Assembly: GCA_036733165.1 (NCBI GenBank)
Contig: DAINBB010000002.1
Span: forward strand, 8,223 to 72,222
Reading direction: 5' to 3'
DNA from: Halobacteria archaeon
GTDB lineage: Archaea; Methanobacteriota_B; Thermococci; Methanofastidiosales; NM3
Length of the DNA: 64,000 nt
Shown: positions 4,575 through 36,236 of the stretch, one piece after another
How positions within the stretch are numbered: position 1 is the stretch's first letter
Layout of the letters: each line of letters begins with the position of its first letter
Made by a program: the position numbers and the translations under genes
Notes under the pieces: model-generated
Databases searched by the model: none
The model's input: only the letters and a program-made list of their open reading frames with translations
Told to the model about the DNA's origin: nothing

Positions 4575-4648
4575 CGGGCCGTGAGGGATTCGAACCCCCG
4601 ACCGATGGATTAAGAGTCCATTGCTCTACCAGACTAAGCCAACGGCCC
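4575..4648 (-). tRNA. tRNA-Lys (anticodon CTT)
   Basis: 74 nt cloverleaf read on the minus strand. Acceptor stem is GGGCCGT/ACGGCCC, anticodon stem-loop is ATGGA-CTCTTAA-TCCAT, T-loop is GGGGGTTCGAATCCCTC, discriminator is G, and no CCA is encoded. Confidence 0.85.
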
Positions 4649-5208: not shown

Positions 5209-5287
5209 TGGGGCCAGGGCCGAGATTTGAACCCGAGTCAAAGGATCCACAGTCCTTTAGGATAGACCAAACTACCCTACCCCGGCC
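5209..5287 (-). tRNA. tRNA-His (anticodon GTG) with encoded G-1 and encoded 3' CCA
   Basis: Read on the minus strand as G-1, then acceptor GCCGGGG/CCCTGGC, anticodon loop CTGTGGA (GTG), T-loop GGGTTCAAATC, discriminator C paired with the extra 5' G-1, and CCA present in the DNA. Confidence 0.8.
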
Positions 5288-11388: not shown

Positions 11389-12164
11389 GACTGGTCGTCC
11401 GCGCTTTCAGGAACGATGGCGCCCTTCATTCTTTTCGCGTCATCGACGCTGACAAACCTTGACACTATCAGGTATATCCCGCCGAACACCAGCACAGACC
11501 CGGCCAGGTCCTCCCAGGTGTGTTCGCCAAGGTATAGCACGGTGAACGTTGTAAGTATCAGGTTCAGCAAGAGGAACCACATGTACTTGTTATAGACGCT
11601 CAGTTTTGTCTTGATGTGGTTGTATCTGGCTATGAGAAATCCAAGGAAGATGTAACCGAAGTGCCCCGATGGCATGCCACCGTACTTTACACTTACAAGG
11701 ATATCGGATATTGGCAGCGCCTCAAGCCTTATGGCCCTGGCGCCAGAGTCCCATCTCAGGGGCGGTGCCACGGGGAATATCATCTCAAGGCCGAAGTGCG
11801 CCAGCCAGCATGCGACCACTGCGATTCCCCATTTCCATCCATCCTTCCCCTGCTTGATCATAAGGTATTGAAGCAGTATGAGGCATATTATGAAACCTAT
11901 CGGATAATAGATTGACAGTATGAGGTCCAATGACGGCGTGGATAGGTGCTCTTGTATCCATATCGTCAGATTGGGCGAGAACGTGATATACCACGATGGG
12001 TGCTCTATGAGGAACTGGAGGGATTGGTAGAATATGAGGAACAGTACCACGAATGCGGCATAGACGCAATTCCTTCTGTATGAGAAGAATTCCCTCAGGT
12101 CCTTCAAAATGACAAAGAAATGGTCTTTGAACTTCCCCATAAAGAGAAGAAAAAACAAATCCAA
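11385..12164 (-). CDS. PAP2-superfamily membrane phosphatase (putative)
   Basis: Polytopic membrane protein with PSGH and HTWED motifs resembling PAP2 motifs 2 and 3. Confidence 0.4.
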   Translation of the reverse strand: MDLFFLLFMGKFKDHFFVILKDLREFFSYRRNCVYAAFVVLFLIFYQSLQFLIEHPSWYITFSPNLTIWIQEHLSTPSLDLILSIYYPIGFIICLILLQYLMIKQGKDGWKWGIAVVACWLAHFGLEMIFPVAPPLRWDSGARAIRLEALPISDILVSVKYGGMPSGHFGYIFLGFLIARYNHIKTKLSVYNKYMWFLLLNLILTTFTVLYLGEHTWEDLAGSVLVFGGIYLIVSRFVSVDDAKRMKGAIVPESADDQS

Positions 12165-12237
12165 TAAAAAGTTTTTGCTCTTTTATACTTTTTTCAATCG
12201 ATATTGTTTATCTGCCAACCGGCACATGAATCAACAT

Positions 12238-13404
12238 ATGCAGAAAACAAAAATGGTCATTCTAAGCCTCTTCTTTTCCATTGTCGGGGTAGGGTTCCTT
12301 TTTTTCGAGTCTGGCGCCCTCACGCCGATTGTGCCGCAGGGGCCCCTTGAATCGTTCATGGGGTCATACGTCTCGCTCGAAGGCGTTGTGTGCAGGAAGT
12401 TCGAGTCAAAGGGCAATCTGTTCATTGTGATAAGGGGAGACTATGAGGTGGAGGTACCGATTTTCTATGGGTTGAAGGAAAGTCTTGGAAGGGTGCCTGA
12501 CCTGGGGGACTGGGTAAATGTCCAGGGTGTCCTGGAGGAAGTGCCACAGGAATACCTCAGGGAGTACTGGCCCAAATTCTCCCTGTCCGTCAATGAGGCA
12601 TATGAGATAGAGGTGGGAGAGATACATCAGGCGTTCCTCGACAAGACGTATGACTATAGCCTTTCGAGGGCGGGGCTCGTGCTGTGCTTGGAGGGGAAGA
12701 TAGAACTTATCGAGGACGGTACCGCCTATGTGAACGGAGTGGGGGTCCCGGCGTCAGAGGAGATGAGTATCGCGGATAGGATCACCGGCAAGGTGCTCGT
12801 GGTCGAGAACGACCACAAACTGGAGAACATACCCATAGAGATGGACCTGCTACCCGCCGATGTGGTGCCATTGGGCAATGTTGTCTTGCAGGGGGAATCC
12901 TACCGGACAAGGGGCACCGTCGAAGAGATGAGACCGTACTACTCCGGGCTCCTTATCACGCTTGTAGAAGATGGTCGTTCGCTTGAGGTCTATGCAAGGA
13001 ACATGGCCCCAATATTCTTCAGGGACGTGATATGTGCCAGGGGGATATTCAAGGAGTTCAGGGGACGCGAACTGCTCTATGTCGGTTCATCGCTTGACAT
13101 TGTGGTCGAGGAAAGAGGTATTGAGGACCCGGTCTTGGCCATGTCGGCGGGACAGAGATCGCTGGTGGTCGCCAACGTGATCGGCGAGGACATGGTAGGC
13201 AAGCATAGGGTGGTCCAACTTTCGGTATCCGGACAGGCCATCAACTGCCATCTGTACTGCGACGAGCTTGAAGATATGGAAAAAATGGGAAGGGACCTGG
13301 GCCTTCTAGAGAAAGGGAGTGTTATTGTCGCGTATCTGGAGATTATAGAAAAAAATGGATTGATAGAGTCGAAACTAATCGACTTTCTGCCTTATTATAA
13401 ATAG
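12238..13404 (+). CDS. membrane-anchored or secreted hypothetical protein
   Basis: Start placed at MQKTKM to avoid overlapping the PAP2-like gene. Has an N-terminal TM/signal segment, then a soluble beta-rich region. Confidence 0.4.
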   Translation: MQKTKMVILSLFFSIVGVGFLFFESGALTPIVPQGPLESFMGSYVSLEGVVCRKFESKGNLFIVIRGDYEVEVPIFYGLKESLGRVPDLGDWVNVQGVLEEVPQEYLREYWPKFSLSVNEAYEIEVGEIHQAFLDKTYDYSLSRAGLVLCLEGKIELIEDGTAYVNGVGVPASEEMSIADRITGKVLVVENDHKLENIPIEMDLLPADVVPLGNVVLQGESYRTRGTVEEMRPYYSGLLITLVEDGRSLEVYARNMAPIFFRDVICARGIFKEFRGRELLYVGSSLDIVVEERGIEDPVLAMSAGQRSLVVANVIGEDMVGKHRVVQLSVSGQAINCHLYCDELEDMEKMGRDLGLLEKGSVIVAYLEIIEKNGLIESKLIDFLPYYK

Positions 13405-13438
13405 ATATAAATATGAAAAGGAAGACTATTAAAAAGCA

Positions 13439-13573
13439 ATGACTGGTACCTCTCCCAAAAAAAAGGAAAAGAAACTGCCCGAGGAGTTCATTCCAGTGCT
13501 TATGAAACATGCCAAGAAACATATGCTGGAAGAAGAGAAGAAGGGCATCTTTCGCAAACTTCCTATAAAATAA
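13439..13573 (+). CDS. candidate small basic protein (44 aa)
   Basis: ATG...TAA ORF (MTGTSPKKKEKKLPEEFIPVLMKHAKKHMLEEEKKGIFRKLPIK) in an intergenic AT-rich stretch. It falls below the ORF-track length cutoff. Confidence 0.2.
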   Translation: MTGTSPKKKEKKLPEEFIPVLMKHAKKHMLEEEKKGIFRKLPIK

Positions 13574-13623
13574 TGGCATGGGGTCCAGAAAACTTTTTAT
13601 TTATTGCTCATCACTTTTGTATA

Positions 13624-15101
13624 ATGAAACGTATAGCTCCGGTAGCTCTGCTCATAATGTTCCTGGTGTCCATGGGCGCTGCAATGGCCGATGAGAACGA
13701 CGTATACATATCCTCAGGGACCACTACAATAGAGCTATACCCCGGATGCTCGGAAACGTTCACCATCATCGTGAGGTCCATAGGACAGGAGGACAGCGGG
13801 ACCACGAGCACCACCACAAATCCGTCGACCACGAGTTCTCCAACCACCAGTCCGCCGACCACGAGTTCTCCAACCACACCAGGGCCACCTCCCCCACCCG
13901 GAGCGGTCGATTCGACCTTGGCAGGATCCGCCGCATCGTTTTCGATGCAGCAGAGCTCAATGTCTCTCTCCTCGCTGATGCTGACCCCCAGCTGACCCTT
14001 TCCGCGGAACCGCCCGAAGGGCTTGAGATCGAGTTCGAGAAAACGGCATTCTATGTGGAATACAACACGAATGTCGAGGTGTCTGTAAAAATCGAGGCGT
14101 CGGAGGACATAGAGCCTGGTGACTACACTATACCTATCAAAGTAAGGTCAAACTCCGGACATTACGACACGATAGAGGTCGGTGTGACAGTGCTCCCATA
14201 CATAGACATAATAATCAATGAGGTGACGGTGAGCGACACCCTCCCCGACGGGGGGGACAACGTGGTGTTTACGGTATCCGTCACGAACATGGGCGAGTCT
14301 CCGACCGGCGAGGTCACATGCGCCATCTACAACAAGGACACCAACGAGAGGATGGCCTCCGAGGTGGTATCGCTGTCCGCGAACGAGACAACGGAGTTCG
14401 ATGTGAACTGGACCGCCGTCGAGGGCGCCTACAGCTTCAGGGTGTTCATCTCGTCCCCCGCAAATGAGAAGATCACCGCAAACAACTATTACTTCCTTTC
14501 AATGAAGGTGGGCCCGGCGTTCATGCCCGTCGATCTTGGGGAGGAATACTTCTCAGAAGGACTGGTCTACTTCGAGTCCAAGAAATGGCAGGAGGCGATA
14601 GACATGTTCAATCTTGCCATAGTCGAGTTCCAGGAGGATGGAGAGGACAACAAGGTGACCACCGTGCAGAGCTATCTCGACATCTCCAGCAAGTACCTTG
14701 AGGCCCATAATCTCTACAACGAGGGCATCGATGCCATGGAGGCGGGCGACATTGCACTTGCAAAGGAAAAACTCCGTGCGGCAGAGACCATATACACGGA
14801 ACTTGGAGACCTGGAAAAGATAAATCTCTGTTTTGACCAGATAATATCGCTCAACGAACCGGAGGAGGACGCCAACCCCAAGGAAAGCTCCTTCCTGCCA
14901 TATCCTTGGTATACGTTCACTGTGCCCCTACTGATGATAATAGTGTTCTTGGGATACACCAGCAGATCGAAACCATCCACAGACCTGAACGCCTTGCTCC
15001 TGGACTTGGAAAGGATGTATGAGAAGGGACAGATCTCTGAAGGGACCTATGTCAAGGAAAAGTATAAGATAAAGCTTAAGATGCTTGAAAAGAATGCTTA
15101 G
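13624..15101 (+). pseudogene. surface/secreted protein gene interrupted by a frameshift in a C5 homopolymer. Architecture is signal peptide, S/T/P linker, large extracellular domain, C-terminal TM and SHOCT-like tail.
   Basis: Frame 1 (13624 onward) encodes a signal peptide and a TTSTTTNPSTTSSPTTSPPTTSSPTTPGPPPP linker. The protein-like reading continues in frame 0 after the C-run at 13891-13895 (..TRSGRFDLGRIRRIVFDAAELNVSLL..). Adding one C there joins both parts into a single ~490 aa protein that ends with a TM helix and an ..ERMYEKGQISEGTYVKEKYKIKLKML tail. Confidence 0.5.
13821..13880. repeat. 2 x 30 bp tandem repeat (TCCG[T/C]CGACCACGAGTTCTCCAACCAC...) encoding PSTTSSPTTS / PPTTSSPTTP
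   Basis: Two adjacent 30-mers differing at 3-4 positions, directly upstream of the C5 tract where the frame breaks. Confidence 0.7.
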
Positions 15102-15299: not shown

Positions 15300-15590
15300 T
15301 TGAACGGCAGTTACATACAAAGAAGTGTCGATTCTTCGGTATTTGAGGACTTTAGAAAACTTTCTATTCCCCTTTCAAAGAGTCCTGTCAGCGTCATTGA
15401 TAACAAAGATGAACTTGACATTGACGAGAGCCTTATGTTTCTCATCTACGAACTGATGACGAAAAATAAGATGTCCTACGACAACCTTGAAGAGATCGAT
15501 ATTTTCAAAAAGACACTGAAAGATATAGTTGATGAACTATACTCAGGCCCTGCAGTCGACTATGTTGTCTTGAATCTGGAAAAGAAGTAA
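15300..15590 (+). CDS. small acidic hypothetical protein (TTG start in the ORF track)
   Basis: 96-codon ORF following a 200 bp AT-rich region. No recognisable motif. Confidence 0.25.
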   Translation: MNGSYIQRSVDSSVFEDFRKLSIPLSKSPVSVIDNKDELDIDESLMFLIYELMTKNKMSYDNLEEIDIFKKTLKDIVDELYSGPAVDYVVLNLEKK

Positions 15591-16904: not shown

Positions 16905-18287
16905 ATGGTCGTCCTCAATCCGTTCGATGAAAAATACAAACGCTATCTGAATATAGATCTGAACAAGATCGACCCGAAGATGATAAGGCTGGCAATAGCC
17001 AGGTCAAATGAGGCAAACAATGAAAAATACGTCGATCTTGATGAAAAGGAGGATATCATCTCTCTCTTTCTCCTGTTGCAGAGCCTGTCGAGGACGCCCC
17101 ATGCCCCGGAGGTCCAAGGCGCGCTTGCGACATTGGAAAAATTACTGATACTGAGGACATCGAGGAACCTTGATGAGGACGGGATAGCGGAGATGTCCGG
17201 ACTCCTGGAGATACACGACCTGCCCGAACTCAAAGACCCCAAGAATCGCATGAAGAGATTCATCGAACTTGAAGAACTTGGACTGCTCGTCTCCAAGGAG
17301 GACCTCTTCAGGCTCAAGGGAGCCAAGGGGGGCGAGATAGAGTATACACTGGCCTGGGACGAGGCATATGGCGTAGTGGATATCACGAAACAGTACATCA
17401 TGGGAAAATACATGTTCATCACCAGGGCGGAACTTGTGGAGTTCTATTCCAAGTTCGTCAGGAAGATCTGCTACGATTATATGCAGAGGATCTCATCCAG
17501 GATACAAGAACATCCGCATCAAGTATATGATAAGATCACAAACATGGTCAAGTCGGTCCTGCGGGTCTCAAAACGGGTGGAAAAGGTCTCGGGTACCCTT
17601 ACGGAGGACGCCTTTCCCCCATGCATAAAGCTTTCCTTGATGGGTGTTTCCTCCGGACAGAGAAACTACTCGATCACGATACTCCTGACATCATTCCTCT
17701 CGTATGCCCGTCTGATGCCCTCAACGAAGATATTCGACAGGGATACGTCGTTCGACCTGAATCAAGAGGATATCGGTGTCCTTCTTGACGAGGTGGTCCC
17801 CGCCATATTCGAGGCCGGTGACAGCTGCGAGCCGCCATTCTTCAAGGAACAGCCTTTGGAACGGATGAACATATTCTACCATCTGGGGTTCGGGATGACC
17901 GAAAAGCCAAACCCCCAGGATTTCGGAAGGTCCAAGTGGTATCTGCCGCCATCATGCGCCAAGGTCGCAGAGAACGCCCCTTACCTCTGCCAGCCCGACG
18001 AGTTCTGCAAGAAGGTCACATGGGGCATCAAGGACCGGAAGACCGTTGATGAGCTCTTGAACAAGGCAAGGGAGGGGGGAAGAATGGCAGAGGGCGAGAT
18101 GGTCCTGGAGACGCTCTCCAAGGGCGCAAGGCCCTTCGACTCCCTGCAGGAGGAGACCGGGATAGACAAAAAAGAGCTTACAGGCCTTCTCACCACGCTG
18201 TCAAAGAACCAGCTGATAGGCAGAAGGAAGATCACGAATCCCCTGATATACTACATAAGAAAAAAATGGATGCTCAGTCAGAGATGA
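16905..18287 (+). CDS. priL: DNA primase large subunit PriL, with a C-terminal winged-helix-like extension
   Basis: Conserved FPPCIKLSLMGVSSGQRNYSITILLTSFL motif (the FPPCM box of PriL/p58). Start set at MVVLNPF to avoid overlapping the upstream gene. Confidence 0.6.
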   Translation: MVVLNPFDEKYKRYLNIDLNKIDPKMIRLAIARSNEANNEKYVDLDEKEDIISLFLLLQSLSRTPHAPEVQGALATLEKLLILRTSRNLDEDGIAEMSGLLEIHDLPELKDPKNRMKRFIELEELGLLVSKEDLFRLKGAKGGEIEYTLAWDEAYGVVDITKQYIMGKYMFITRAELVEFYSKFVRKICYDYMQRISSRIQEHPHQVYDKITNMVKSVLRVSKRVEKVSGTLTEDAFPPCIKLSLMGVSSGQRNYSITILLTSFLSYARLMPSTKIFDRDTSFDLNQEDIGVLLDEVVPAIFEAGDSCEPPFFKEQPLERMNIFYHLGFGMTEKPNPQDFGRSKWYLPPSCAKVAENAPYLCQPDEFCKKVTWGIKDRKTVDELLNKAREGGRMAEGEMVLETLSKGARPFDSLQEETGIDKKELTGLLTTLSKNQLIGRRKITNPLIYYIRKKWMLSQR

Positions 18288-27049: not shown

Positions 27050-28116
27050 ACCAGTTCTTCATGACTGGCATCCGTTTTAAATCCCGTAGGTTTGAAATGT
27101 GTCCTTGAAGCCTCAAATCCATTATCTATGATCTTTTCCAATATCGCGTTCATTGCCGGCACATGTATTTTCAAATGTGAAAACAGGTTATGCGAATCCC
27201 AGAAGAATGGAACATCCACTTCCTCCATGAGAAGTGAGATAAAGGAACGGACCCTCGTCTCATCGTGCAACGCCGCCGTTTCCAAAGAGCCCAACATGCC
27301 GCATAGGGCCTCTTTGTCATTTATCCTGCCCCCCCATACGGGATGGGCAGCCCTTAGCTTCCCCCCACAGCCGCATTCGCATTGTATCCTACTGCTGAAA
27401 AATCTGTTCAAACATTTGTCACAATAATAAATAAACCCCAGATTGGCTATTGAAGTGTCTGCCCTTTGTTTTCCTTTCTCTAGGTCTATGTGCGTCCTCA
27501 TATAATGGTCTTTGAAAAAAGAGACCCTTGGAACGATGCCATAGTCCCACGATGCGGCCTGCCTCGCAATGTATCCTATAAGTATCCTGAGCCCAATTTC
27601 ATGGCAAAAACCGGTCATGAGGGGGTGGGCGGAATATTTTCTCAGGCAAGCCTTTTTTGAGGATCCACAAAGGGCTGCCGTGTCGGTGGCGGTCACAAGA
27701 AGCGTTCCTGTCTTCCCAAACATACCGAATGCGGGATGAACATATCTAACCGGCGCCCCAAAGGGATCTATATCTATTATGTCATATTTACCTTTGATCA
27801 AGTTGAAATCCATGTTGAGAGATTTGATGTCGACCTTGTTGAGTGAGGAATTCCTCTTGATCAGTTCATATGCCTTAGGATTGATATCGTTGGCTGTGAC
27901 ATTTGTAAAACCGCTCAGGGCGTATCTTATAGGACGTATTCCAGTTCCCGCCATGCCACAGAGTATCGAAGAATCAAATGATTTTTGCATTATATATAGT
28001 AAAGATATGTCCCTATTGAAACTCATTAAAGGGTTATAAAAAACTTCATTTCTAGAGGTCACTTTTTCATAGTCTGGAACAAAGAAATTTACATTAGACT
28101 CTGAAACATCTGCCAC
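27028..28116 (-). CDS. trm1: tRNA (guanine26-N2)-dimethyltransferase Trm1
   Basis: FYNPLMSFNRDIS and ALSGFTNVTANDIN motifs. C-terminal Cys cluster (CDKCLNRF...CECGCGG). Confidence 0.8.
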   Translation of the reverse strand: MADVSESNVNFFVPDYEKVTSRNEVFYNPLMSFNRDISLLYIMQKSFDSSILCGMAGTGIRPIRYALSGFTNVTANDINPKAYELIKRNSSLNKVDIKSLNMDFNLIKGKYDIIDIDPFGAPVRYVHPAFGMFGKTGTLLVTATDTAALCGSSKKACLRKYSAHPLMTGFCHEIGLRILIGYIARQAASWDYGIVPRVSFFKDHYMRTHIDLEKGKQRADTSIANLGFIYYCDKCLNRFFSSRIQCECGCGGKLRAAHPVWGGRINDKEALCGMLGSLETAALHDETRVRSFISLLMEEVDVPFFWDSHNLFSHLKIHVPAMNAILEKIIDNGFEASRTHFKPTGFKTDASHEELVHIFSSK

Positions 28117-28125
28117 ATGAATCCC

Positions 28126-29793
28126 TCAAATGACATCCATCATATCGTTGAGCTTGGATTGAATCTGTTGAAGCCTTGACTTGGCAATGTCCATCAACCC
28201 CTGATCCAAATACGCCTCATCGCTGCTAAATGATCTAGCATAGAAAGCATATAACTCATCGAAACGCTCTCGGTATATGAAGTAATTATCCTTATTTGAC
28301 GGATCGAGTTCATCGAAAAACTCATCGACCCATTGAACAAAGTTGACAAGAAGGCTGTTCTTGATATTGATGGTTTTTTCTTGAAATGATACAAAAGAGT
28401 CCAATTCCTCATTTGCGGCAGGGGGGCGTTCCTCTAAGGTCTGTTGTACGCCTTCACTGCCCAGATCGATAGAAGAAGGCGCCCCTTCGTCTTCTGTGAA
28501 CTGTTCTGAGGCCCTTTTTATTGCAGAGACATTCTTCTTTGGCTTTTCTTTTGGTATGTAAGTTTTATTTCCGTTTGACCTAGCATGGACAAACAAGGCC
28601 AAGAATATCAATAATAGGGCAAAGCCACCCCCACCATATAAAAGATATTTTCTATCTATGTTAAAGGTACTATTCGACGGCGGCGTTGTGGGTACGGGTG
28701 TTTGGAGATTCAGAAATTGTTGTGCGATTGCAATATTCTGATCACATAACGACACCTTCTCAGAATCTGAGTAATCCTCATAAATATCCTTGGCATATTG
28801 GTATTTAGATATTGCAAGCTCGTAATTTTGATTGTTCAGCGCACTAGTGGCCTCGCTGTAATAATTGGCAGCCAGTATATAATCATTGCATTTGTTTATC
28901 AAGACATCGATATCAGACACCACTTCATCCTCTTCCAGGGAACTGTATCCTGTCTTAACGTATCCCAATAATGTAAGAGCGGAAGCATAGTCATTGGCAG
29001 ACATCAATAAGAGGGCGTCGTCATAATCGGATTGTAGGGAGGGGTAAAGCTCACATTTCTGAATCTGTGAGTTACAATATGAAACCTTTGCGTCATCCGA
29101 TAGAAAGTCAAAATTGGTCAAGGCAGATTGGTACTGTTCCTTGGCAAGAACGTAACTCCCCTCAGAATAATAGTCATCGGCACTGGATAAATCAGCGTTG
29201 GCCTCAATATATTTATCACATTTGATTATTCTTTGAGAGCACGTAATCGAATTGTAAACGTCTCCCAAATCATCATATATCTCCTTTGCACTTTCATAAT
29301 AATATTTAGAAGTATCATACTCTTCCAAATCAAAATAACGTTCGGCATTAAGATAAAAGGTTTCTGCAGATGCCCTTAAATTGTCATCATATACTAATGC
29401 CTCGTTTATCTTAGAGGAATAATATGCGAAAGTTTTTAGACCTCGAAGAATGGCATATGGTTCATCGGTTAGATGTTCAGCTAATTCATCGTATATCACA
29501 ACAGTGGGCAATTCCTCGATATCGTAAAGATTGACCAATGTCGTCTCTCCGTTATCTAAATTCAAACTTATAATATAGACAGATGTACCATAATAATCTT
29601 CAATATCGTCCATTATATCATCGCTAGTTGAACAATCAGCGCATGTAGAGTCCCAAAAATAGACCATTATGACAAGACCATTTCCCAATGCATTTTCAAC
29701 ATTGCTTGAAGAATCAGTGGCAGTTGTATATTGAAAAGACGATAACATCAATAACATCATCAAAACAACAGTGATGAGCCAACAACTGCGCAT
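28126..29793 (-). CDS. membrane-spanning surface protein: signal peptide, thioredoxin-like CxxC domain, Tyr-rich TPR-like repeats, one TM helix, cytoplasmic tail
   Basis: MVYFWDSTCADCS thioredoxin-like motif, repeated ..YY..A...Y.. helices, a TM at GGGGFALLLIFLALFV, and a ~170 aa C-terminal domain. Confidence 0.45.
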   Translation of the reverse strand: MRSCWLITVVLMMLLMLSSFQYTTATDSSSNVENALGNGLVIMVYFWDSTCADCSTSDDIMDDIEDYYGTSVYIISLNLDNGETTLVNLYDIEELPTVVIYDELAEHLTDEPYAILRGLKTFAYYSSKINEALVYDDNLRASAETFYLNAERYFDLEEYDTSKYYYESAKEIYDDLGDVYNSITCSQRIIKCDKYIEANADLSSADDYYSEGSYVLAKEQYQSALTNFDFLSDDAKVSYCNSQIQKCELYPSLQSDYDDALLLMSANDYASALTLLGYVKTGYSSLEEDEVVSDIDVLINKCNDYILAANYYSEATSALNNQNYELAISKYQYAKDIYEDYSDSEKVSLCDQNIAIAQQFLNLQTPVPTTPPSNSTFNIDRKYLLYGGGGFALLLIFLALFVHARSNGNKTYIPKEKPKKNVSAIKRASEQFTEDEGAPSSIDLGSEGVQQTLEERPPAANEELDSFVSFQEKTINIKNSLLVNFVQWVDEFFDELDPSNKDNYFIYRERFDELYAFYARSFSSDEAYLDQGLMDIAKSRLQQIQSKLNDMMDVI

Positions 29794-29835
29794 AATATAG
29801 ATATATATAAAAATTATAAAAAGGTTTTTACTTCT

Positions 29836-30504
29836 ATGAAAGAGGAAAAAGAGAAGAGAATGGTGGGGGTCTACGCATCCAAATTTGTCAAAGACGGACA
29901 GGTCATCGGACTTGGCACTGGAAGCACCGTTGCATACTTTGCAGAGGCGTTGGGTGAAAGGATTCTCAATGGAGAAAGTTTTCTTGCTGTTCCAACCTCA
30001 TATCAATCAATAGATCTATGTAAAAAATATGGAATTACCTTAACAACGCTGGATGAACACCGCCCAGAATGTGCATTTGATGGTGCCGATGAAGTGGATA
30101 AGAGCAATAATCTTATCAAGGGGCGTGGCGGGGCCATGACTCAAGAAAAGATAGTAGACTATTATTCAAATGAATTCTTTGTTCTTGTGGATAAATCAAA
30201 ACTAGTTAAGATACTAGGTTCTAACTTTCCTCTACCAATTGAAGTGATCCCCAAGGCCATAAAACCGGTTATAGATAAATTATCCGAAATGGGGAGTCCC
30301 ATGGTAAGGCCTGCAATAAATAAGGACGGTCCAGTGATTACCGATAATGGTAATTTTATCGTTGACCTAAAAACAATAATAAAAAATCCAAAAGAAATGG
30401 AAATTAATATAAATAATATACCAGGGGTCGTGGAGAATGGCATTTTTACACGAAAATGTAAAATAATAGTGCCAAATGACAACGACATCATTGATGTTAT
30501 TTAA
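29836..30504 (+). CDS. rpiA: ribose-5-phosphate isomerase A
   Basis: GLGTGSTVAYF and DGADEVD motifs. Confidence 0.8.
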   Translation: MKEEKEKRMVGVYASKFVKDGQVIGLGTGSTVAYFAEALGERILNGESFLAVPTSYQSIDLCKKYGITLTTLDEHRPECAFDGADEVDKSNNLIKGRGGAMTQEKIVDYYSNEFFVLVDKSKLVKILGSNFPLPIEVIPKAIKPVIDKLSEMGSPMVRPAINKDGPVITDNGNFIVDLKTIIKNPKEMEININNIPGVVENGIFTRKCKIIVPNDNDIIDVI

Positions 30505-30518
30505 CATCAATAACATCA
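30492..30518. promoter_or_regulatory. perfect 10 bp inverted repeat TGATGTTATT-N7-AATAACATCA overlapping the rpiA stop codon
   Basis: Read directly from the sequence. Lies upstream of the coiled-coil wHTH gene and shares the GATGTTAT core with repeats at 31250-31287. Confidence 0.5.
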
Positions 30519-30540
30519 CCGTTTATAATTAATTAGAAAA

Positions 30541-31242
30541 TTGTCTTTTTTTTTAGATTTAATCAATAATTATAAATTATTCGATAACATCATCGAAAAC
30601 TATTTATTATATCATATATTACTATACCTCATGGGATTACTATCTGCTCTTGGATTGAAAAGAAATGATGACAAGCTAGAACAAGAAATCACAAAATTGA
30701 AGGAAACTGTAGAAATACAAAGTCAACAGAATATTGAAGGAATAAGAAATGATATAAGATCTCTGTTTTCAGAAGTTCAGAATATAAAGACTGGACTCAA
30801 GGACTGTTCATCAGGGATTGAGAAAAGTGAATTTAAAATATCCAAACTAGCCGAAAAGATGGTAGAAATCGAAAATAATATGCTAAAAGTTGTATACAGA
30901 GACGAAATCGACTTAATAAAGAAAGAATTCGATTATATACAGGAAGATATTAAAAATATAAAAGAATCACAAGCGAAAATCACTGATAAAGTGATTAATT
31001 TTGCCTTAGATAAAGGCAAAAGTACCAATGTTGAACCCTCAGAAAGTGTGATTTTAGAACCATTAACCGATTTTGAAAAAGAAGTCCTTTCAGAATACAA
31101 AAATGATATCACTTCGGACGCCATAGTTAAGGATACTGGCATGTCCAAAGGGCACATTTCAAGAACTCTGAAAGGCCTCTATAAGAAAGGATATCTTTCC
31201 AGAAAGAGAAAAGGTAAAGAATATATATATTACAAAAAATGA
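30541..31242 (+). CDS. coiled-coil protein with a C-terminal winged-HTH (MarR/TrmB-like)
   Basis: Long heptad-rich central region, and a C-terminal ..DTGMSKGHISRTLKGLYKKGYLSRKRKGKEYIY wHTH. The start codon is uncertain. Confidence 0.45.
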   Translation: MSFFLDLINNYKLFDNIIENYLLYHILLYLMGLLSALGLKRNDDKLEQEITKLKETVEIQSQQNIEGIRNDIRSLFSEVQNIKTGLKDCSSGIEKSEFKISKLAEKMVEIENNMLKVVYRDEIDLIKKEFDYIQEDIKNIKESQAKITDKVINFALDKGKSTNVEPSESVILEPLTDFEKEVLSEYKNDITSDAIVKDTGMSKGHISRTLKGLYKKGYLSRKRKGKEYIYYKK

Positions 31243-31249
31243 TAAGAAT

Positions 31250-31287
31250 GACATCGATGATGTTATTGTGATATCATTGATGTTATA
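31250..31287. repeat. two direct copies of an 18 nt motif (GACATCGATGATGTTATT / GATATCATTGATGTTATA) that also occurs at 30484-30501
   Basis: Direct reading: 30484 GACATCATTGATGTTATT; 31250 GACATCGATGATGTTATT; 31270 GATATCATTGATGTTATA. Confidence 0.6.
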
Positions 31288-31696
31288 ATACATCATCAAG
31301 AATTGTTATCATTTTTTTTCTCATATTTTGAAATGTACGTTCACTTTCACTTTCTTTGGCATCCTTCAATAATTCGAGCAATTCGATGTAAATATCGATG
31401 GATTCAACCGGGATCAGGTTCGCGTATATACCTAAAATGAAGGTGGCCATTGACTTGTCGATGTTGGCTTTTGCTAAGCGAATGTTATCCGATATCGCTT
31501 GTTTTGTAACTAAACGGTGCTCAGCAATGTCTTGTACTGTCACAGAATCTCCAAATTCCTTGTTCCAAATATAAGAAACGTAATCTTTTAGCTGTATTTT
31601 ACTAAAAAAACTGATTTTCATTAATTTATTAGCAAAATAATCAGAATCTAACCATTTATCTATATAATTATATGAGTATTTCATGAAATCATCCAA
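31283..31696 (-). CDS. hypothetical protein with a putative HTH
   Basis: 137 aa. VTVQDIAEHRLVTKQAISDNIRLAKANI looks like an HTH. Confidence 0.35.
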   Translation of the reverse strand: MDDFMKYSYNYIDKWLDSDYFANKLMKISFFSKIQLKDYVSYIWNKEFGDSVTVQDIAEHRLVTKQAISDNIRLAKANIDKSMATFILGIYANLIPVESIDIYIELLELLKDAKESESERTFQNMRKKMITILDDVL

Positions 31697-31788
31697 GTCA
31701 AGGCATTTTACTTGACAAGTATATTTCAGAAGACTATTTAAATATTATCATAATCTTATAGTTATATAATTTTCAATATACTAGGTAT

Positions 31789-32274
31789 GTGAATTCTATG
31801 AAGAAGGTTTATCTTAATTGGACTAAGGTGGACGAAGCCATCTGGACTCTAAAGGATGAGATATGGAAAGAATTCGTTCCAGACATCATTGTTGGTGTGG
31901 CCAGGGGCGGACTAATACCTGCAGTGAGACTATCACATATAACAAACAACACTTTGATGAGAGTTGTAGATGTCAAGTTTTATACAGATATAGAAAAAAG
32001 AACTGAAAAACCTACCATTACTGTCCCTTTAACTGAAAATATCACTGATCTCAACGTTTTAATCGCTGATGACGTAGCAGATACAGGAAAAACGTTAGTA
32101 GAGGTCAAAAAACACATTAAATCATTAAATCCTAAGAAAATTAAGGTGGCCGTTATAGCAAAAAAGCCTCAAAGCATAATTGATCCAGACTATTATGTAT
32201 TTGAAACGGACAAGTGGATTATATTCCCCTGGGAAAAGATGCCCGTTGAAAGGGGAAGTGGAGAAATGGTATGA
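31789..32274 (+). CDS. type I phosphoribosyltransferase (purine PRTase-like)
   Basis: PRPP-binding motif VLIADDVADTGKTL. Confidence 0.55.
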   Translation: MNSMKKVYLNWTKVDEAIWTLKDEIWKEFVPDIIVGVARGGLIPAVRLSHITNNTLMRVVDVKFYTDIEKRTEKPTITVPLTENITDLNVLIADDVADTGKTLVEVKKHIKSLNPKKIKVAVIAKKPQSIIDPDYYVFETDKWIIFPWEKMPVERGSGEMV

Positions 32275-32822
32275 CAAGGTTATTTGTAGCGATAAATCTA
32301 GACGATGAAATAAAAAAGACCATTGTGTCCATAGATGATCTATTTTCAAAAAGTAGCATAAATGCAAAATTCACATCCCCTGAAAATATGCACATGACTT
32401 TGAAGTTTATTGGTGAATGGCCCTTCAATGATGTTAATGATGTCATCGATATCCTCAATGATGTCAAGACATCATTCAAGCCTTTCAATGTCGATTTCGA
32501 AGGAATTGGGGGATTCCCAAATGATCATGCTCCTCGTATCATATGGGTTGGTGGAAAATCAAGGACATTGGTCGATATGGCAGGTAAAATTGATAAAAAT
32601 CTATCAACGTTGGGTATAAAAAAGGAAAATAGGCCCTTCTCCTCCCATATAACCTTGGCAAGGGTAAAAAATATCTTGAATAGAGATGATATCATTAACA
32701 TCATTCATGCCAATAAAGATGTCGCCATAGGCAGCCAACATGTCACGGAGTTCTGTCTCAAGAAAAGTGAATTGACCCCAAATGGGCCAATATATTCTGA
32801 TGTGGAGGTATTTACCCTATGA
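32271..32822 (+). CDS. thpR: RNA 2',3'-cyclic phosphodiesterase (LigT/ThpR, 2H family)
   Basis: Two H-x-T/S-x motifs (HMTLKF, HITLAR). Start overlaps the upstream gene by 4 nt. Confidence 0.75.
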   Translation: MTRLFVAINLDDEIKKTIVSIDDLFSKSSINAKFTSPENMHMTLKFIGEWPFNDVNDVIDILNDVKTSFKPFNVDFEGIGGFPNDHAPRIIWVGGKSRTLVDMAGKIDKNLSTLGIKKENRPFSSHITLARVKNILNRDDIINIIHANKDVAIGSQHVTEFCLKKSELTPNGPIYSDVEVFTL

Positions 32823-34060
32823 ACATGGAAGAGGTCTTAAGATTAATAGTCCCTGATCAGGAAGAAAAGGAAGAGGCCCTGAAAAAATATGGAGAAGTAT
32901 CTGACTACATAGAAAAGAGATTCGGAAGAGAAACCATCCTAGTGGGGTCGGTTGCCAAAGATACCTTCCTAAAGGGAGACAAAGACCTTGACATATTCGT
33001 TTACTTCAATATTGATGAAAAACGCGAGGAGATGGAGAAAGAAGCCCTGCTGATTGGCAAATCGGTGTTTGAACATTTTGGGAATGAATACCAAGTTGAA
33101 TATGCCGAACACCCTTATGTATCGGGGATCGTCGATGGATATGATATAGAGATCGTGCCCTGCTACAAGATCAAGAATGCTCACAACATAATCTCAGCGG
33201 TAGATAGAACGCCATTCCATTTGTCATTTGTCAAAGACCATCTGAGAGACTGCCAGAAAGATGATGTCAGGCTGCTCAAAAAATTTTTAAAGGCACAAAA
33301 AATGTACGGCGCCGACTCAAAGGTCAATGGATTCTCGGGATATCTATGCGAACTGTTGATAATACATTATGGTTCCTTCGAAGGATTGGCAAGGTCGGCC
33401 ATTAATTGGGAAGTAGGGGAAACGATAGAGTTTTTAAGGCCAGTCAATGTGTTTAAAGACCCCCTGATCATTATTGATCCCGTTGATCCAAATCGCAATG
33501 TGGCTTCCCCGGTATCCTTGGACACGTATTCAAGATTCGTGCTGGAATGTAAGAGATACTTTGACACGAAGGACGAGGGCATGTTCGCAGGGCCCGAGAT
33601 GGGTTATGAACCCATTGAAGGCGGCAGGTTGATCGTCATCCAGGTCGATATGGACGTGCTTGAAGATATTTTTTATTCCCAATGTAGAAAGTTTCTTGCC
33701 ACAATCAAAAGGTCCTTCAAGAGCGAGGGATTCACTTTGTATAGGTCAGGCATATTCTCCAAAGGTCTCGTGCTGGACATCGAGACTGGGGACCTGCCTA
33801 CCATAAAGAAACACATGGGGCCAAGGATTGGCAATGTGGAGAACATGCAAAGATTCCTTTCGAAGAATAGATGCGTCTTTGCAGAGGGGGGACATCTCTT
33901 CTCCTTCAGAGAGAGAAGATACAATGATGTCATTGATGTCATCAATGATATTATAAAAGATAAGGTAGGGATGGGAAATCATCTTAAAAAGGCAAATTTA
34001 AAAATATTATCAAAAGAAAGTGCATATTTATCTATAAAAGATGAAATTATTTATTATTAA
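32819..34060 (+). CDS. cca: CCA-adding tRNA nucleotidyltransferase (archaeal class I)
   Basis: GSVAKDTFLKGDKDLDIFV polymerase-beta-like motif. 413 aa. Start overlaps the upstream stop. Confidence 0.8.
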   Translation: MNMEEVLRLIVPDQEEKEEALKKYGEVSDYIEKRFGRETILVGSVAKDTFLKGDKDLDIFVYFNIDEKREEMEKEALLIGKSVFEHFGNEYQVEYAEHPYVSGIVDGYDIEIVPCYKIKNAHNIISAVDRTPFHLSFVKDHLRDCQKDDVRLLKKFLKAQKMYGADSKVNGFSGYLCELLIIHYGSFEGLARSAINWEVGETIEFLRPVNVFKDPLIIIDPVDPNRNVASPVSLDTYSRFVLECKRYFDTKDEGMFAGPEMGYEPIEGGRLIVIQVDMDVLEDIFYSQCRKFLATIKRSFKSEGFTLYRSGIFSKGLVLDIETGDLPTIKKHMGPRIGNVENMQRFLSKNRCVFAEGGHLFSFRERRYNDVIDVINDIIKDKVGMGNHLKKANLKILSKESAYLSIKDEIIYY

Positions 34061-35172
34061 AGAGTAATTACCTCATCGGATGCACAATCTAATTTAGTAT
34101 ATATATTATCTCCATTATAATAGATGTATATGGTGTCAATGATGTCAGGAAGGTCAAAGTACAATGTAAGGCCATCTATGTTTTCCTCGCTTGTTATCGT
34201 CACTAAAAGCTCGTTGAGGGATTCCTTATAATCAACTTCAATCCCAGAAAGCATGTTGTACCATTCCAGATATTCATGGATTGTTGGCATCCATATGTTA
34301 TTCTCGTTTGCATGCTCCAAGAACCGCTCCATCATCTCCAACGCCTCGTATCTTCCAGTTATCTCATTGACTGCCATCAATCGCGGCAGATGCGTGAAGA
34401 CCAAGAAGGGGGTTCCTTTCTTCAGGCAGGCATCGAATCTCGTTGTCAGTTCATGGTATACTGTTGAAGAGTTCTCAGGTGTGACATCCCAAAAATAATC
34501 CTCTGGAAAACAGGGGATCTCGATGATGTCAATATCATCACCAAAAAAAGGATGGAAAGTGTCCTTTGGATTGTATGGAAAAACATTGAATATGGAAGCT
34601 GAGGAACAATATTGGAATCCCGCCTCTTCCAAAGCCTTGTAAGTATTGGTATTTTTCCAGAAGGAGGGCGGCCTGAACCCGTATATCTCCCCAAATAGGG
34701 ACTCAAGATCCTCTTTCCCACTGCTTATTATGGAAAGTTGCTCATCGTACGACTTTCCCTTCAACTCCATGGTTGGATAGTGTATATATCCATGAAGGGC
34801 CATCTCGTCTCCCTGAGACAGGGCCTCGTTCAGGGCTTCGATCAATTCCTGGTTCTGAGACAGCGTTCTTTCCTCTCCGCCGTATCTGGGTATTATGAAA
34901 TATGTCACGTCGGCCTGATATTTTTCCGTAAGTTCCATAATCATCTGGATCTCTTCAGCAGAGGTCATATAGGAAACATCGTCAATCGTCAATATGGCGA
35001 CGCCTTCGTTTCCGGAGGGGAATCTACCTATAGAACAATATTCGTTGTCTAGGTCAAATGGGTCCCAATAAGATGAGAAAGGAGAAAAGTATCTTTGGAC
35101 ATTGATCGTGTAAAGATAAGAACTAACTAAAATTATTAGGAACAGAATAAACAGGTATCTTCTCCTTATCAT
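34057..35172 (-). CDS. putative polysaccharide deacetylase-like protein (DUF2334-like?) with an N-terminal TM anchor
   Basis: N-terminal hydrophobic anchor. The DDVSYMTS...YFIIP region resembles a deacetylase-like fold. This assignment is weak. Confidence 0.35.
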   Translation of the reverse strand: MIRRRYLFILFLIILVSSYLYTINVQRYFSPFSSYWDPFDLDNEYCSIGRFPSGNEGVAILTIDDVSYMTSAEEIQMIMELTEKYQADVTYFIIPRYGGEERTLSQNQELIEALNEALSQGDEMALHGYIHYPTMELKGKSYDEQLSIISSGKEDLESLFGEIYGFRPPSFWKNTNTYKALEEAGFQYCSSASIFNVFPYNPKDTFHPFFGDDIDIIEIPCFPEDYFWDVTPENSSTVYHELTTRFDACLKKGTPFLVFTHLPRLMAVNEITGRYEALEMMERFLEHANENNIWMPTIHEYLEWYNMLSGIEVDYKESLNELLVTITSEENIDGLTLYFDLPDIIDTIYIYYNGDNIYTKLDCASDEVITL

Positions 35173-35177
35173 CACTT

Positions 35178-35411
35178 TCACTTTGATAGATTGCTGAGGG
35201 CAACAGTATATAGCGCTATTAGCAAGTCCTGATTCTCCTCTGCATCTCCGACCAGCGCCGATGCCGCGATCTGTTTGAGGGCGATGCACTTTATCATTGC
35301 CATCCTAACGGATTCGGTCTCGTTGTCCTTGAGCTTTATACCATTAAGGTCGAATATATGCTTGATGTTCTGCCTGTCGGTCTCTGCAATTTCATCTGGT
35401 GTCATTTCCAT
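35178..35411 (-). CDS. small hypothetical protein
   Basis: 77 aa ORF in the otherwise empty gap upstream of the deacetylase-like gene. Confidence 0.3.
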   Translation of the reverse strand: MEMTPDEIAETDRQNIKHIFDLNGIKLKDNETESVRMAMIKCIALKQIAASALVGDAEENQDLLIALYTVALSNLSK

Positions 35412-35549
35412 TTATAAGTCACCTTTTGCCTTAGGTATCCTCTGGGTTATATTAAATTTTTCCATAAGATTTTTAAATTCTGCAAAACGGGTTACTTCAG
35501 CCGTCGGGATACTATTAATAAATTATTTATTGTGTAGTTCTCATACTGT

Positions 35550-36236
35550 GTGGAGAAAATGCTTTCTTTAGGAACGTCATTCTATGAGCTCATAGGGGCA
35601 ATAGCCTTGATCCTGATAGTTTTTACAATATTATTGATAGTGTTCGGATTGATACAGCTCATGATCTCCATGAGGATAAACAAGTTCATATTTCCTAATC
35701 TTCAGTCTTTTCTGGTGGATACATTCTATTCCGTGTTTGAGAGCGCCTTCGGCATTTTCAATGTTCCCTCCGACGTGTTGGAAGAGTGGAGCATAACTCT
35801 CAAGAATCATGCGAACCGGGAGCACTTCATCAAGGTCCCGGTTTCTAAAAGGATAGTGGTGTTGCCCCAATGTCTTAGATCCATAAACTGTCCAGCGAAT
35901 CTGTCTGCAAAGGATGGCATTCGATGTCTTGATTGCGGGAGATGTATGATAAAAGAGTTCAGGAAAAGGGCAGAGGAGCTTGGCTACAAGGTCTTCGTGG
36001 TCCCTGGAGGGACCTTTGTAAAACGGATCATCAAGAAAGAAAGGCCCGAAGCCGTGATAGGTGTCGGTTGCTTTCCCGACCTCGTGGAGGGGATGAAGAT
36101 ATCAAAACGGGCCGGTATAGCATCCCAAGGAGTGCTGTTAGAGACCAGCGGGTGCATCGAGACCATCATAGAATGGAGCAAATTGTATGAAAAGTTATAT
36201 CTTGGATTAGATATAAATAAGGAGGTCATCGCTTGA
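35550..36236 (+). CDS. DUF116-family membrane protein (conserved Cys pairs)
   Basis: N-terminal TM helices, then LRSINCPANL...CLDCGRCMIKEF and a conserved C-terminal block typical of DUF116. Confidence 0.5.
   Translation: MEKMLSLGTSFYELIGAIALILIVFTILLIVFGLIQLMISMRINKFIFPNLQSFLVDTFYSVFESAFGIFNVPSDVLEEWSITLKNHANREHFIKVPVSKRIVVLPQCLRSINCPANLSAKDGIRCLDCGRCMIKEFRKRAEELGYKVFVVPGGTFVKRIIKKERPEAVIGVGCFPDLVEGMKISKRAGIASQGVLLETSGCIETIIEWSKLYEKLYLGLDINKEVIA

Follow-up and report, generated by a model that had tools for sequence, protein, structure and literature searches.

A CARDB-domain gene split by one missing cytosine on a Methanofastidiosa contig: a probable strain-level null allele

Introduction

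The 64-kb stretch of archaeal DNA analysed here (the window) contains two overlapping plus-strand open reading frames (ORFs) in different frames, 13573..13995 (frame 1, hereafter frame A) and 13746..15101 (frame 0, 451 aa, hereafter frame B). Are these two genes, or one gene whose reading frame has been broken, and if so, where and by what kind of event? An original prediction, made from the letters of the window, had read the pair as a single archaeal surface-protein gene of about 490 aa, interrupted by a missing C in a C5 run beside a 30-bp tandem repeat, and had named sequencing error, pseudogene formation and slipped-strand phase variation as possible causes. Here, we compare the locus with its orthologues and with contigs of the same species, describe the protein that the intact gene encodes, and weigh the explanations for the break.

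Results

The two ORFs are parts of one gene

Analysis of the orthologue alignment indicated that the ORF in frame A, although open from 13573, has its biological start at the ATG at 13624 (MKRIAPVALL...), as every orthologue begins with MKR or MRR at the equivalent position. One base inserted at any point of the overlap joins the two ORFs in a product of about 492 aa, in agreement with the predicted size. A search of 5.8 billion proteins recovered the 451-aa ORF of the window (P0001) and three full-length relatives of 485–489 aa (P0002–P0004), which are single genes in three related species and align end to end with the 492-aa repaired product at 65%, 54%, and 52% identity. A profile search of 1.84 billion representatives added about ten further full-length clusters (436–559 aa) together with many partial CARDB/TPR matches. 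None of the relatives found is split into two genes; the original prediction had named two separate genes in orthologues as the outcome that would speak against it. In an exact-sequence look-up, the repaired protein proved identical over 492 residues to HOP09006.1 (P0005) from Candidatus Methanofastidiosa archaeon, which is named a CARDB domain-containing protein and is encoded on a 127-kb JGI contig and in GCA_035379965.1. The HOP09006.1 match and the single-gene orthologues bear out the reading of the overlapping ORFs as one gene that lacks a C in a C5 run: close relatives have a collinear full-length version, and a single lesion accounts for the disruption.

The gene neighbourhood of the orthologues matches the window from 12.1 to 18.3 kb, with a gene of about 387 aa, a 44-aa gene, the CARDB gene, a gene of about 95 aa, TctA, and the primase large subunit, and the genes flanking the HOP09006.1 allele are the same as those in the window. 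The CARDB gene is flanked by uncharacterised genes at 12109–13404 (about 388 aa), 13439–13573 (44 aa), and 15300–15590 (about 96 aa), whose order is constant in all four related species. Pfam returned a weak OB-fold match for the 388-aa neighbour and none for the 96-aa neighbour, and the products of these three small or uncharacterised genes may act together with the CARDB protein.

The frame is lost at the second of two C5 runs

The gene region contains three C5 runs, one G7 run, and three A/T runs of five, and two of the C5 runs lie in the ORF overlap (Table 1). The original prediction had placed the break at 13888–13899, within CCTCCCCCACCC. A C5 run is indeed present there, but it is not the frameshift site. 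The PPPPP motif at this run is kept by the orthologues in frame A, and frame A continues past the run through PGAVDSTLAGSAASFSMQQSSMSLSSLMLTP in the orthologue alignment. Beyond the conserved PPPPP, the relatives carry a Ser-rich stretch (for example ..IDSMITSLSKSSSMSMYSMLASSPQLTLRSEPPEGLDVEFE) that corresponds to frame A of the window (PGAVDSTLAGSAASFSMQQSSMSLSSLMLTPS*) until its stop, and they align with frame B from ..PQLTLSAEPPEGLEIEFE on. When the disputed 31–32 residues were scored against the orthologues with BLOSUM62, frame A reached 28–38 and frame B reached 4–8; this scoring would support frame A, weakly when taken alone, because the low-complexity segment is Ser-rich and compositionally biased and shuffled frame A sequences score nearly as high (about 22–24).

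To compare DNA within the species, we aligned five contigs that are at least 99.8% identical to the window with its positions 13401–15101, namely L010 (JGI 3300009772), L011/L015 (JGI 3300010350, the 127-kb contig), L012 (GCA_035379965.1), L013 (ENA ERZ27257475), and L014 (ENA ERZ795048, essentially the same contig as L012). Across these six contigs, only four positions vary in about 1.7 kb, and the sole length difference is the run at 13985–13989, with five C in the window and six in each of the five other contigs. Some of these contigs may stem from related reactors, or from repeated assembly of one data set. This six-contig alignment is the decisive evidence for the site of the break: the true frame is lost at the second C5 run, where the other contigs share C6 and the window contig alone has C5. 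A repair at 13891–13895 was rejected, since that run is invariant in all six contigs and frame A continues past it. Because the break lies at 13985–13989, the junction peptide offered by the original prediction (..PPPPTRSGRFDLGRIRRIVFDAAELNV..) is an out-of-frame reading and thus noise. The predicted 30-bp tandem repeat was found, and it encodes TTNPSTTSSP/TTSPPTTSSP in the linker; the break had been described as adjoining this repeat, and its true position is 107 nt downstream.

Addition of one C to the run at 13985–13989 converts CTG ACC CCC AGC TGA into CTG ACC CCC CAG CTG ACC, so that the intact C6 context reads ACC CCC CAG (T P Q). The junction peptide across the repaired site is SLSSLMLTPQLTLSAEPPEGLEIEFEK, and the repaired frame reads LMLTPQLTL there. 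As the proposed course of events, the C6 tract (ACC CCC CAG) would have lost one C by replication slippage, leaving the C5 run. Translation from 13624 would then read ..LMLTPS and stop at the TGA at 13993–13995, giving a 123-aa peptide made up of the signal sequence and the linker, and the folded ectodomain, the transmembrane (TM) helix, and the tail would be left in the other frame, without a signal peptide or a credible start. The window allele would be functionally null, because its product would consist of signal peptide and linker and the remainder would lack a signal peptide.

Table 1. Positions of the features of the CARDB gene in the window
Feature	Position	Strand	Remarks
5' fragment	13624..13995	+	ends with the premature TGA 13993–13995; ORF list, orthologues, AlphaFold model
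Signal peptide	~13624–13686	+	predicted; within the 5' fragment, followed by three N-terminal beta strands
S/T/P-rich disordered linker	~13789–13980	+	
30-bp tandem repeat	13813–13878	+	TRF: 2.2 copies, 88% matches, score 111
First C5 run	13891–13895	+	inside CCTCCCCCACCC; in-frame part of PGPPPPP
Frameshift site, C5 run	13985–13989	+	C6 in all other same-species contigs; DNA alignments
3' part, other frame	13986..15101	+	reads (P)QLTLSAEPPEGLEIEF...; stop codon 15099–15101
CARDB domain	~14205–14450	+	
G7 run	14250–14256	+	GAC GGG GGG GAC; longest homopolymer of the gene
TM helix	~14907–14960	+	

A second disrupting allele occurs among the same-species contigs

Comparison of the six contigs revealed three substitutions in addition to the length difference. 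The change 13783 G>T, present in L010 and L013, converts codon 54 (13783–13785, plus strand) from GGA (Gly) to a TGA stop; 13797 C>T, present in L012 and L014, is synonymous; and 14431 A>G, present in L013, replaces Tyr229 with Cys. The tandem repeat, in both sequence and copy number, and the G7 run are invariant in all six contigs, as is the first C5 run. The intact 492-aa allele is found on L011/L015 and L012, and the contig of the window carries only truncated calls, P0001 and HPR41104.1 (NCBI, 303 aa). The short gene calls P0007 and P0008 result from the TGA at Gly54, and the Gly54-to-TGA allele suggests that loss of the protein is tolerated. By our own rough estimate, at least one nonsense change among three SNPs in the gene has a chance of about 10–15%, so that this second null allele is suggestive and not significant. 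The 385-aa product of the Gly54-to-TGA allele is also on record for a 28-kb JGI contig.

Searches of the GTDB representative genomes with the exact DNA pattern (C5 or C6) and with protein-derived patterns gave no match, and a search of metagenome contigs with the C5/C6 pattern for further alleles returned only two of the contigs compared here, both with C6. An exact look-up of the 451-aa ORF of the window gave no contig on record. Two side observations concern the quality of the compared records. An 88-aa antisense ORF (window 13611–13877, minus strand) spans the signal-peptide and linker region, and in L010 and L014 metagenome gene callers chose it over the genuine 5' end of the gene. This call is almost certainly spurious, and it helps to conceal the intact or truncated gene in databases. 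Near the start of L010, five mismatches are clustered within 80 nt (contig positions 38–118, window 12176–12256), reflecting either assembly noise at the contig end or a variable N-terminus of the upstream gene.

The window and L015 share 21,480 bp at 99.98% identity, differing by two SNPs and two single-base indels. This stretch contains 108 homopolymer runs of at least 5 bases, 35 of at least 6, and 11 of at least 7, of which one of the 108 differs and none of the 11. The SNP at 13086 is a synonymous third-position change (Gly283, GGT/GGC) in the gene upstream of the CARDB gene, and the SNP at 17105 is a synonymous third-position change (Ala67, GCC/GCT) in the primase large subunit. The second indel is a single T at window 7277 (CGCCATATTAAT versus CGCCAATTAAT in L015), located in a 49-nt intergenic spacer between the stop of a DUF4130 gene (7237) and the start of a cupin gene (7287). 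The T at 13086 is private to the window and lies about 900 nt upstream of the frameshift, and all four other contigs that cover the site carry C; the window therefore represents a distinct haplotype.

The intact gene encodes a predicted beta-sandwich surface protein

Analysis of the repaired protein with Pfam identified a CARDB domain (PF07705) at residues 195–276, with 28.6 bits against a gathering cut-off of 22.7, an assignment that agrees with the NCBI name of the intact allele. Two further families stayed below their thresholds, NEW3/NPCBM_assoc (PF10633) at residues 123–175 with 24.0 bits against 24.4, and TPR_2 with 24.3 bits against 27. SHOCT (PF09851) gave no match for the tail of the window protein, and the tail of the orthologue P0003 reached 21.5 bits (E = 2e-4), below the cut-off of 27.

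An AlphaFold model, built from a four-sequence alignment and with a mean pLDDT of 58, shows in its N-terminal half a hydrophobic helix (residues 4–22), strands (27–52), and a disordered segment (56–119, pLDDT about 25–35), followed by two beta sandwiches (123–190, with pLDDT 82–86, and 196–276). The C-terminal half consists of helices (321–410), a TM helix (429–446), and C-terminal helices. A Foldseek search of the PDB with this model returned generic tandem Ig-like/beta-sandwich matches, including RbmA and WxLIP, with E values of 1e-7 to 1e-8; because these matches are generic and their TM scores are low (0.15–0.2), no functional assignment was made. The protein is probably a type-I membrane or surface protein with an exposed beta-sandwich ectodomain, as judged from the Pfam matches and the model. 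Its parts are best explained as a signal peptide, a short N-terminal beta segment, an S/T/P-rich linker of about 65 residues, NEW3-like and CARDB sandwiches, a TPR-like region, a TM helix, and a short SHOCT-like cytoplasmic tail. In the layout given by the original prediction, the archaeal surface or membrane protein with signal peptide, S/T/P linker, a large extracellular part (here beta-sandwich domains), and TM helix is retained, and the SHOCT-like tail, to which the window sequence gave no hit, is a weakly supported candidate.

Other features of the window

Inspection of ORF geometry across the 64-kb window revealed no other convincing split gene, and the overlapping ORF pairs that were checked against the gene calls of L015 are ordinary 4-bp overlaps. 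A scan for sigma-70 promoters and terminators was set aside as uninformative for an archaeon. Positions 28000–36000 of the window form a low-GC island, with GC of 0.32–0.41 against about 0.49 elsewhere and GC3 of 0.28–0.41. According to Pfam, this island holds housekeeping genes, namely those of a thioredoxin-like 555-aa protein, ribose-5-phosphate isomerase A, and a MarR-like regulator, together with a phosphoribosyltransferase, LigT, the CCA-adding enzyme, and a DUF2334/polysaccharide deacetylase protein. Two tRNA genes are located on the minus strand at 4575–4648 and 5212–5286 (Rfam, 70.2 and 49.5 bits).

Discussion

The deletion at the second C5 run is probably a real mutation in a chance homopolymer that gives rise to a strain-level loss-of-function allele, a reading to which we assign a probability of roughly 0.6 on the basis of the sequence comparisons. 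If the mutation is real, we infer that at least two knock-out alleles have arisen independently in the population, that of the window among them, and that the surface protein is dispensable or counter-selected. It is possible, if doubtful, that the assembler simply dropped one C and that the organism truly carries C6 and an intact gene, through an error of sequencing, assembly, or consensus building. Such an error would agree with the presence of the C5 allele on a single contig and with the remainder of the gene, whose translation matches the intact allele at 100%, and a one-base change in a G/C homopolymer is the commonest kind of consensus indel; yet in the shared 21.5 kb only one of the 108 runs of at least 5 bases differs, and longer runs, including the G7 run of the same gene, are identical. 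Random consensus errors should mostly strike coding sequence, at positions where they alter the protein. The other differences from L015 are a pair of synonymous SNPs and an intergenic indel; these fit true divergence and look like the pattern of real divergence filtered by selection, a case that draws on very few events (2 SNPs and 2 indels). One of them, the private synonymous SNP on the window contig, lies 900 nt upstream of the lesion. In addition, an independent nonsense SNP, which a homopolymer error is unable to produce, disrupts the same gene in other contigs. Of the causes named by the original prediction, pseudogene formation and sequencing error both stay live.

The proposal that the C tract is a reversible slipped-strand contingency switch, turning an archaeal surface protein on and off, appears quite improbable. 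The length of the tract does vary between assemblies (C5 versus C6), the gene product is predicted to be surface-exposed, and the second null allele suggests that loss of the protein is sometimes tolerated or favoured. The tract, however, comprises just 5–6 bases, below the homopolymer of about 7–8 bases typical of phase-variable loci, and it is not kept across species, the orthologues having C4, C2, and C2 at this place (TCA CCC CAG, TCG CCA AAC, and TCG CCG CAC). Runs of G or C of at least 6 bases occur at chance frequency, with 37 in 64 kb and at least one in 52% of gene-sized windows. Among the six contigs, neither the longer G7 run of the same gene nor the copy number of the tandem repeat varies. 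C5 is linked to the private SNP 13086-T, as expected of a single derived deletion, and no reversion was observed in the comparison between assemblies (one contig with C5, five with C6). For simple-sequence repeats, the boundary of evolved phase variation has been placed near 7C tracts, and short tracts, including the 7C of siaD, are regarded as 'accidental' mutation-prone sites unless high and reversible switching is shown; homopolymer indels that arise at a lower rate are termed 'mutation-prone adaptive variation' (PMC11868660). We see very little prospect that the C6/C5 tract is a reversible switch or a recurrent mutational hotspot that toggles the CARDB protein in natural Methanofastidiosa populations; were it so, the nonsense codon would lead to the same 'off' state by another path, perhaps driven by viruses or grazers, and a true switch would document contingency-type surface variation for an archaeon. 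It is scarcely credible that a programmed -1 ribosomal frameshift, or transcriptional slippage, on C5 restores the full-length protein. A -1 slip of tRNA-Pro on C-CCC-C would yield exactly ..LTPQLTL.., the intact sequence, but the zero frame (CTG ACC CCC AGC TGA) contains no slippery heptamer X XXY YYZ, the downstream 101 nt (13990–14090) fold no better than shuffled sequences (z = -1.28; 24 of 200 at least as stable), and the frameshift is not conserved, as all other same-species contigs and the orthologues read through in a single frame.

What the window shows is the ordinary loss of one base from a C6 run, present by chance, in a known CARDB gene, and no new mechanism is supported. Annotators should regard the two ORFs and HPR41104.1 (303 aa) as a single disrupted copy of the gene for the 492-aa HOP09006.1. 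A minor point of population genetics is that contigs with at least 99.8% identity carry two different null alleles of one surface-protein gene, a frameshift and a nonsense codon. Should reads bear out both alleles, the protein would be dispensable or counter-selected in some Methanofastidiosa bioreactor populations, and the locus would offer a lead to virus receptors, or to surface functions tied to a niche, in an uncultured methanogen.

The encoded protein resembles surface and adhesin-type proteins with tandem beta sandwiches (CARDB, NEW3; RbmA, WxLIP) in having two consecutive sandwiches, and it differs from them in the combination of a TPR-like region, a single TM helix, and a SHOCT-like tail, which is specific to about ten clusters at 50% identity. 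Classical slipped-strand phase-variable surface genes include those with the poly-C/G tracts of Neisseria, Haemophilus, and Campylobacter. As in those genes, the homopolymer described here lies in the 5' part of a surface-protein gene and a change in its length shifts the frame; unlike them, the tract is too short, not conserved, and not enriched, and longer repeats of the same gene are stable. Compared with the 7C tract of Neisseria meningitidis siaD and the homopolymer indels of Mycobacterium tuberculosis, the present tract is shorter (C6), and the second null allele gives no more than a hint of selection for loss; as occasionally in those two systems, a surface component would have been lost through a one-base indel in a short chance homopolymer (PMC11868660).
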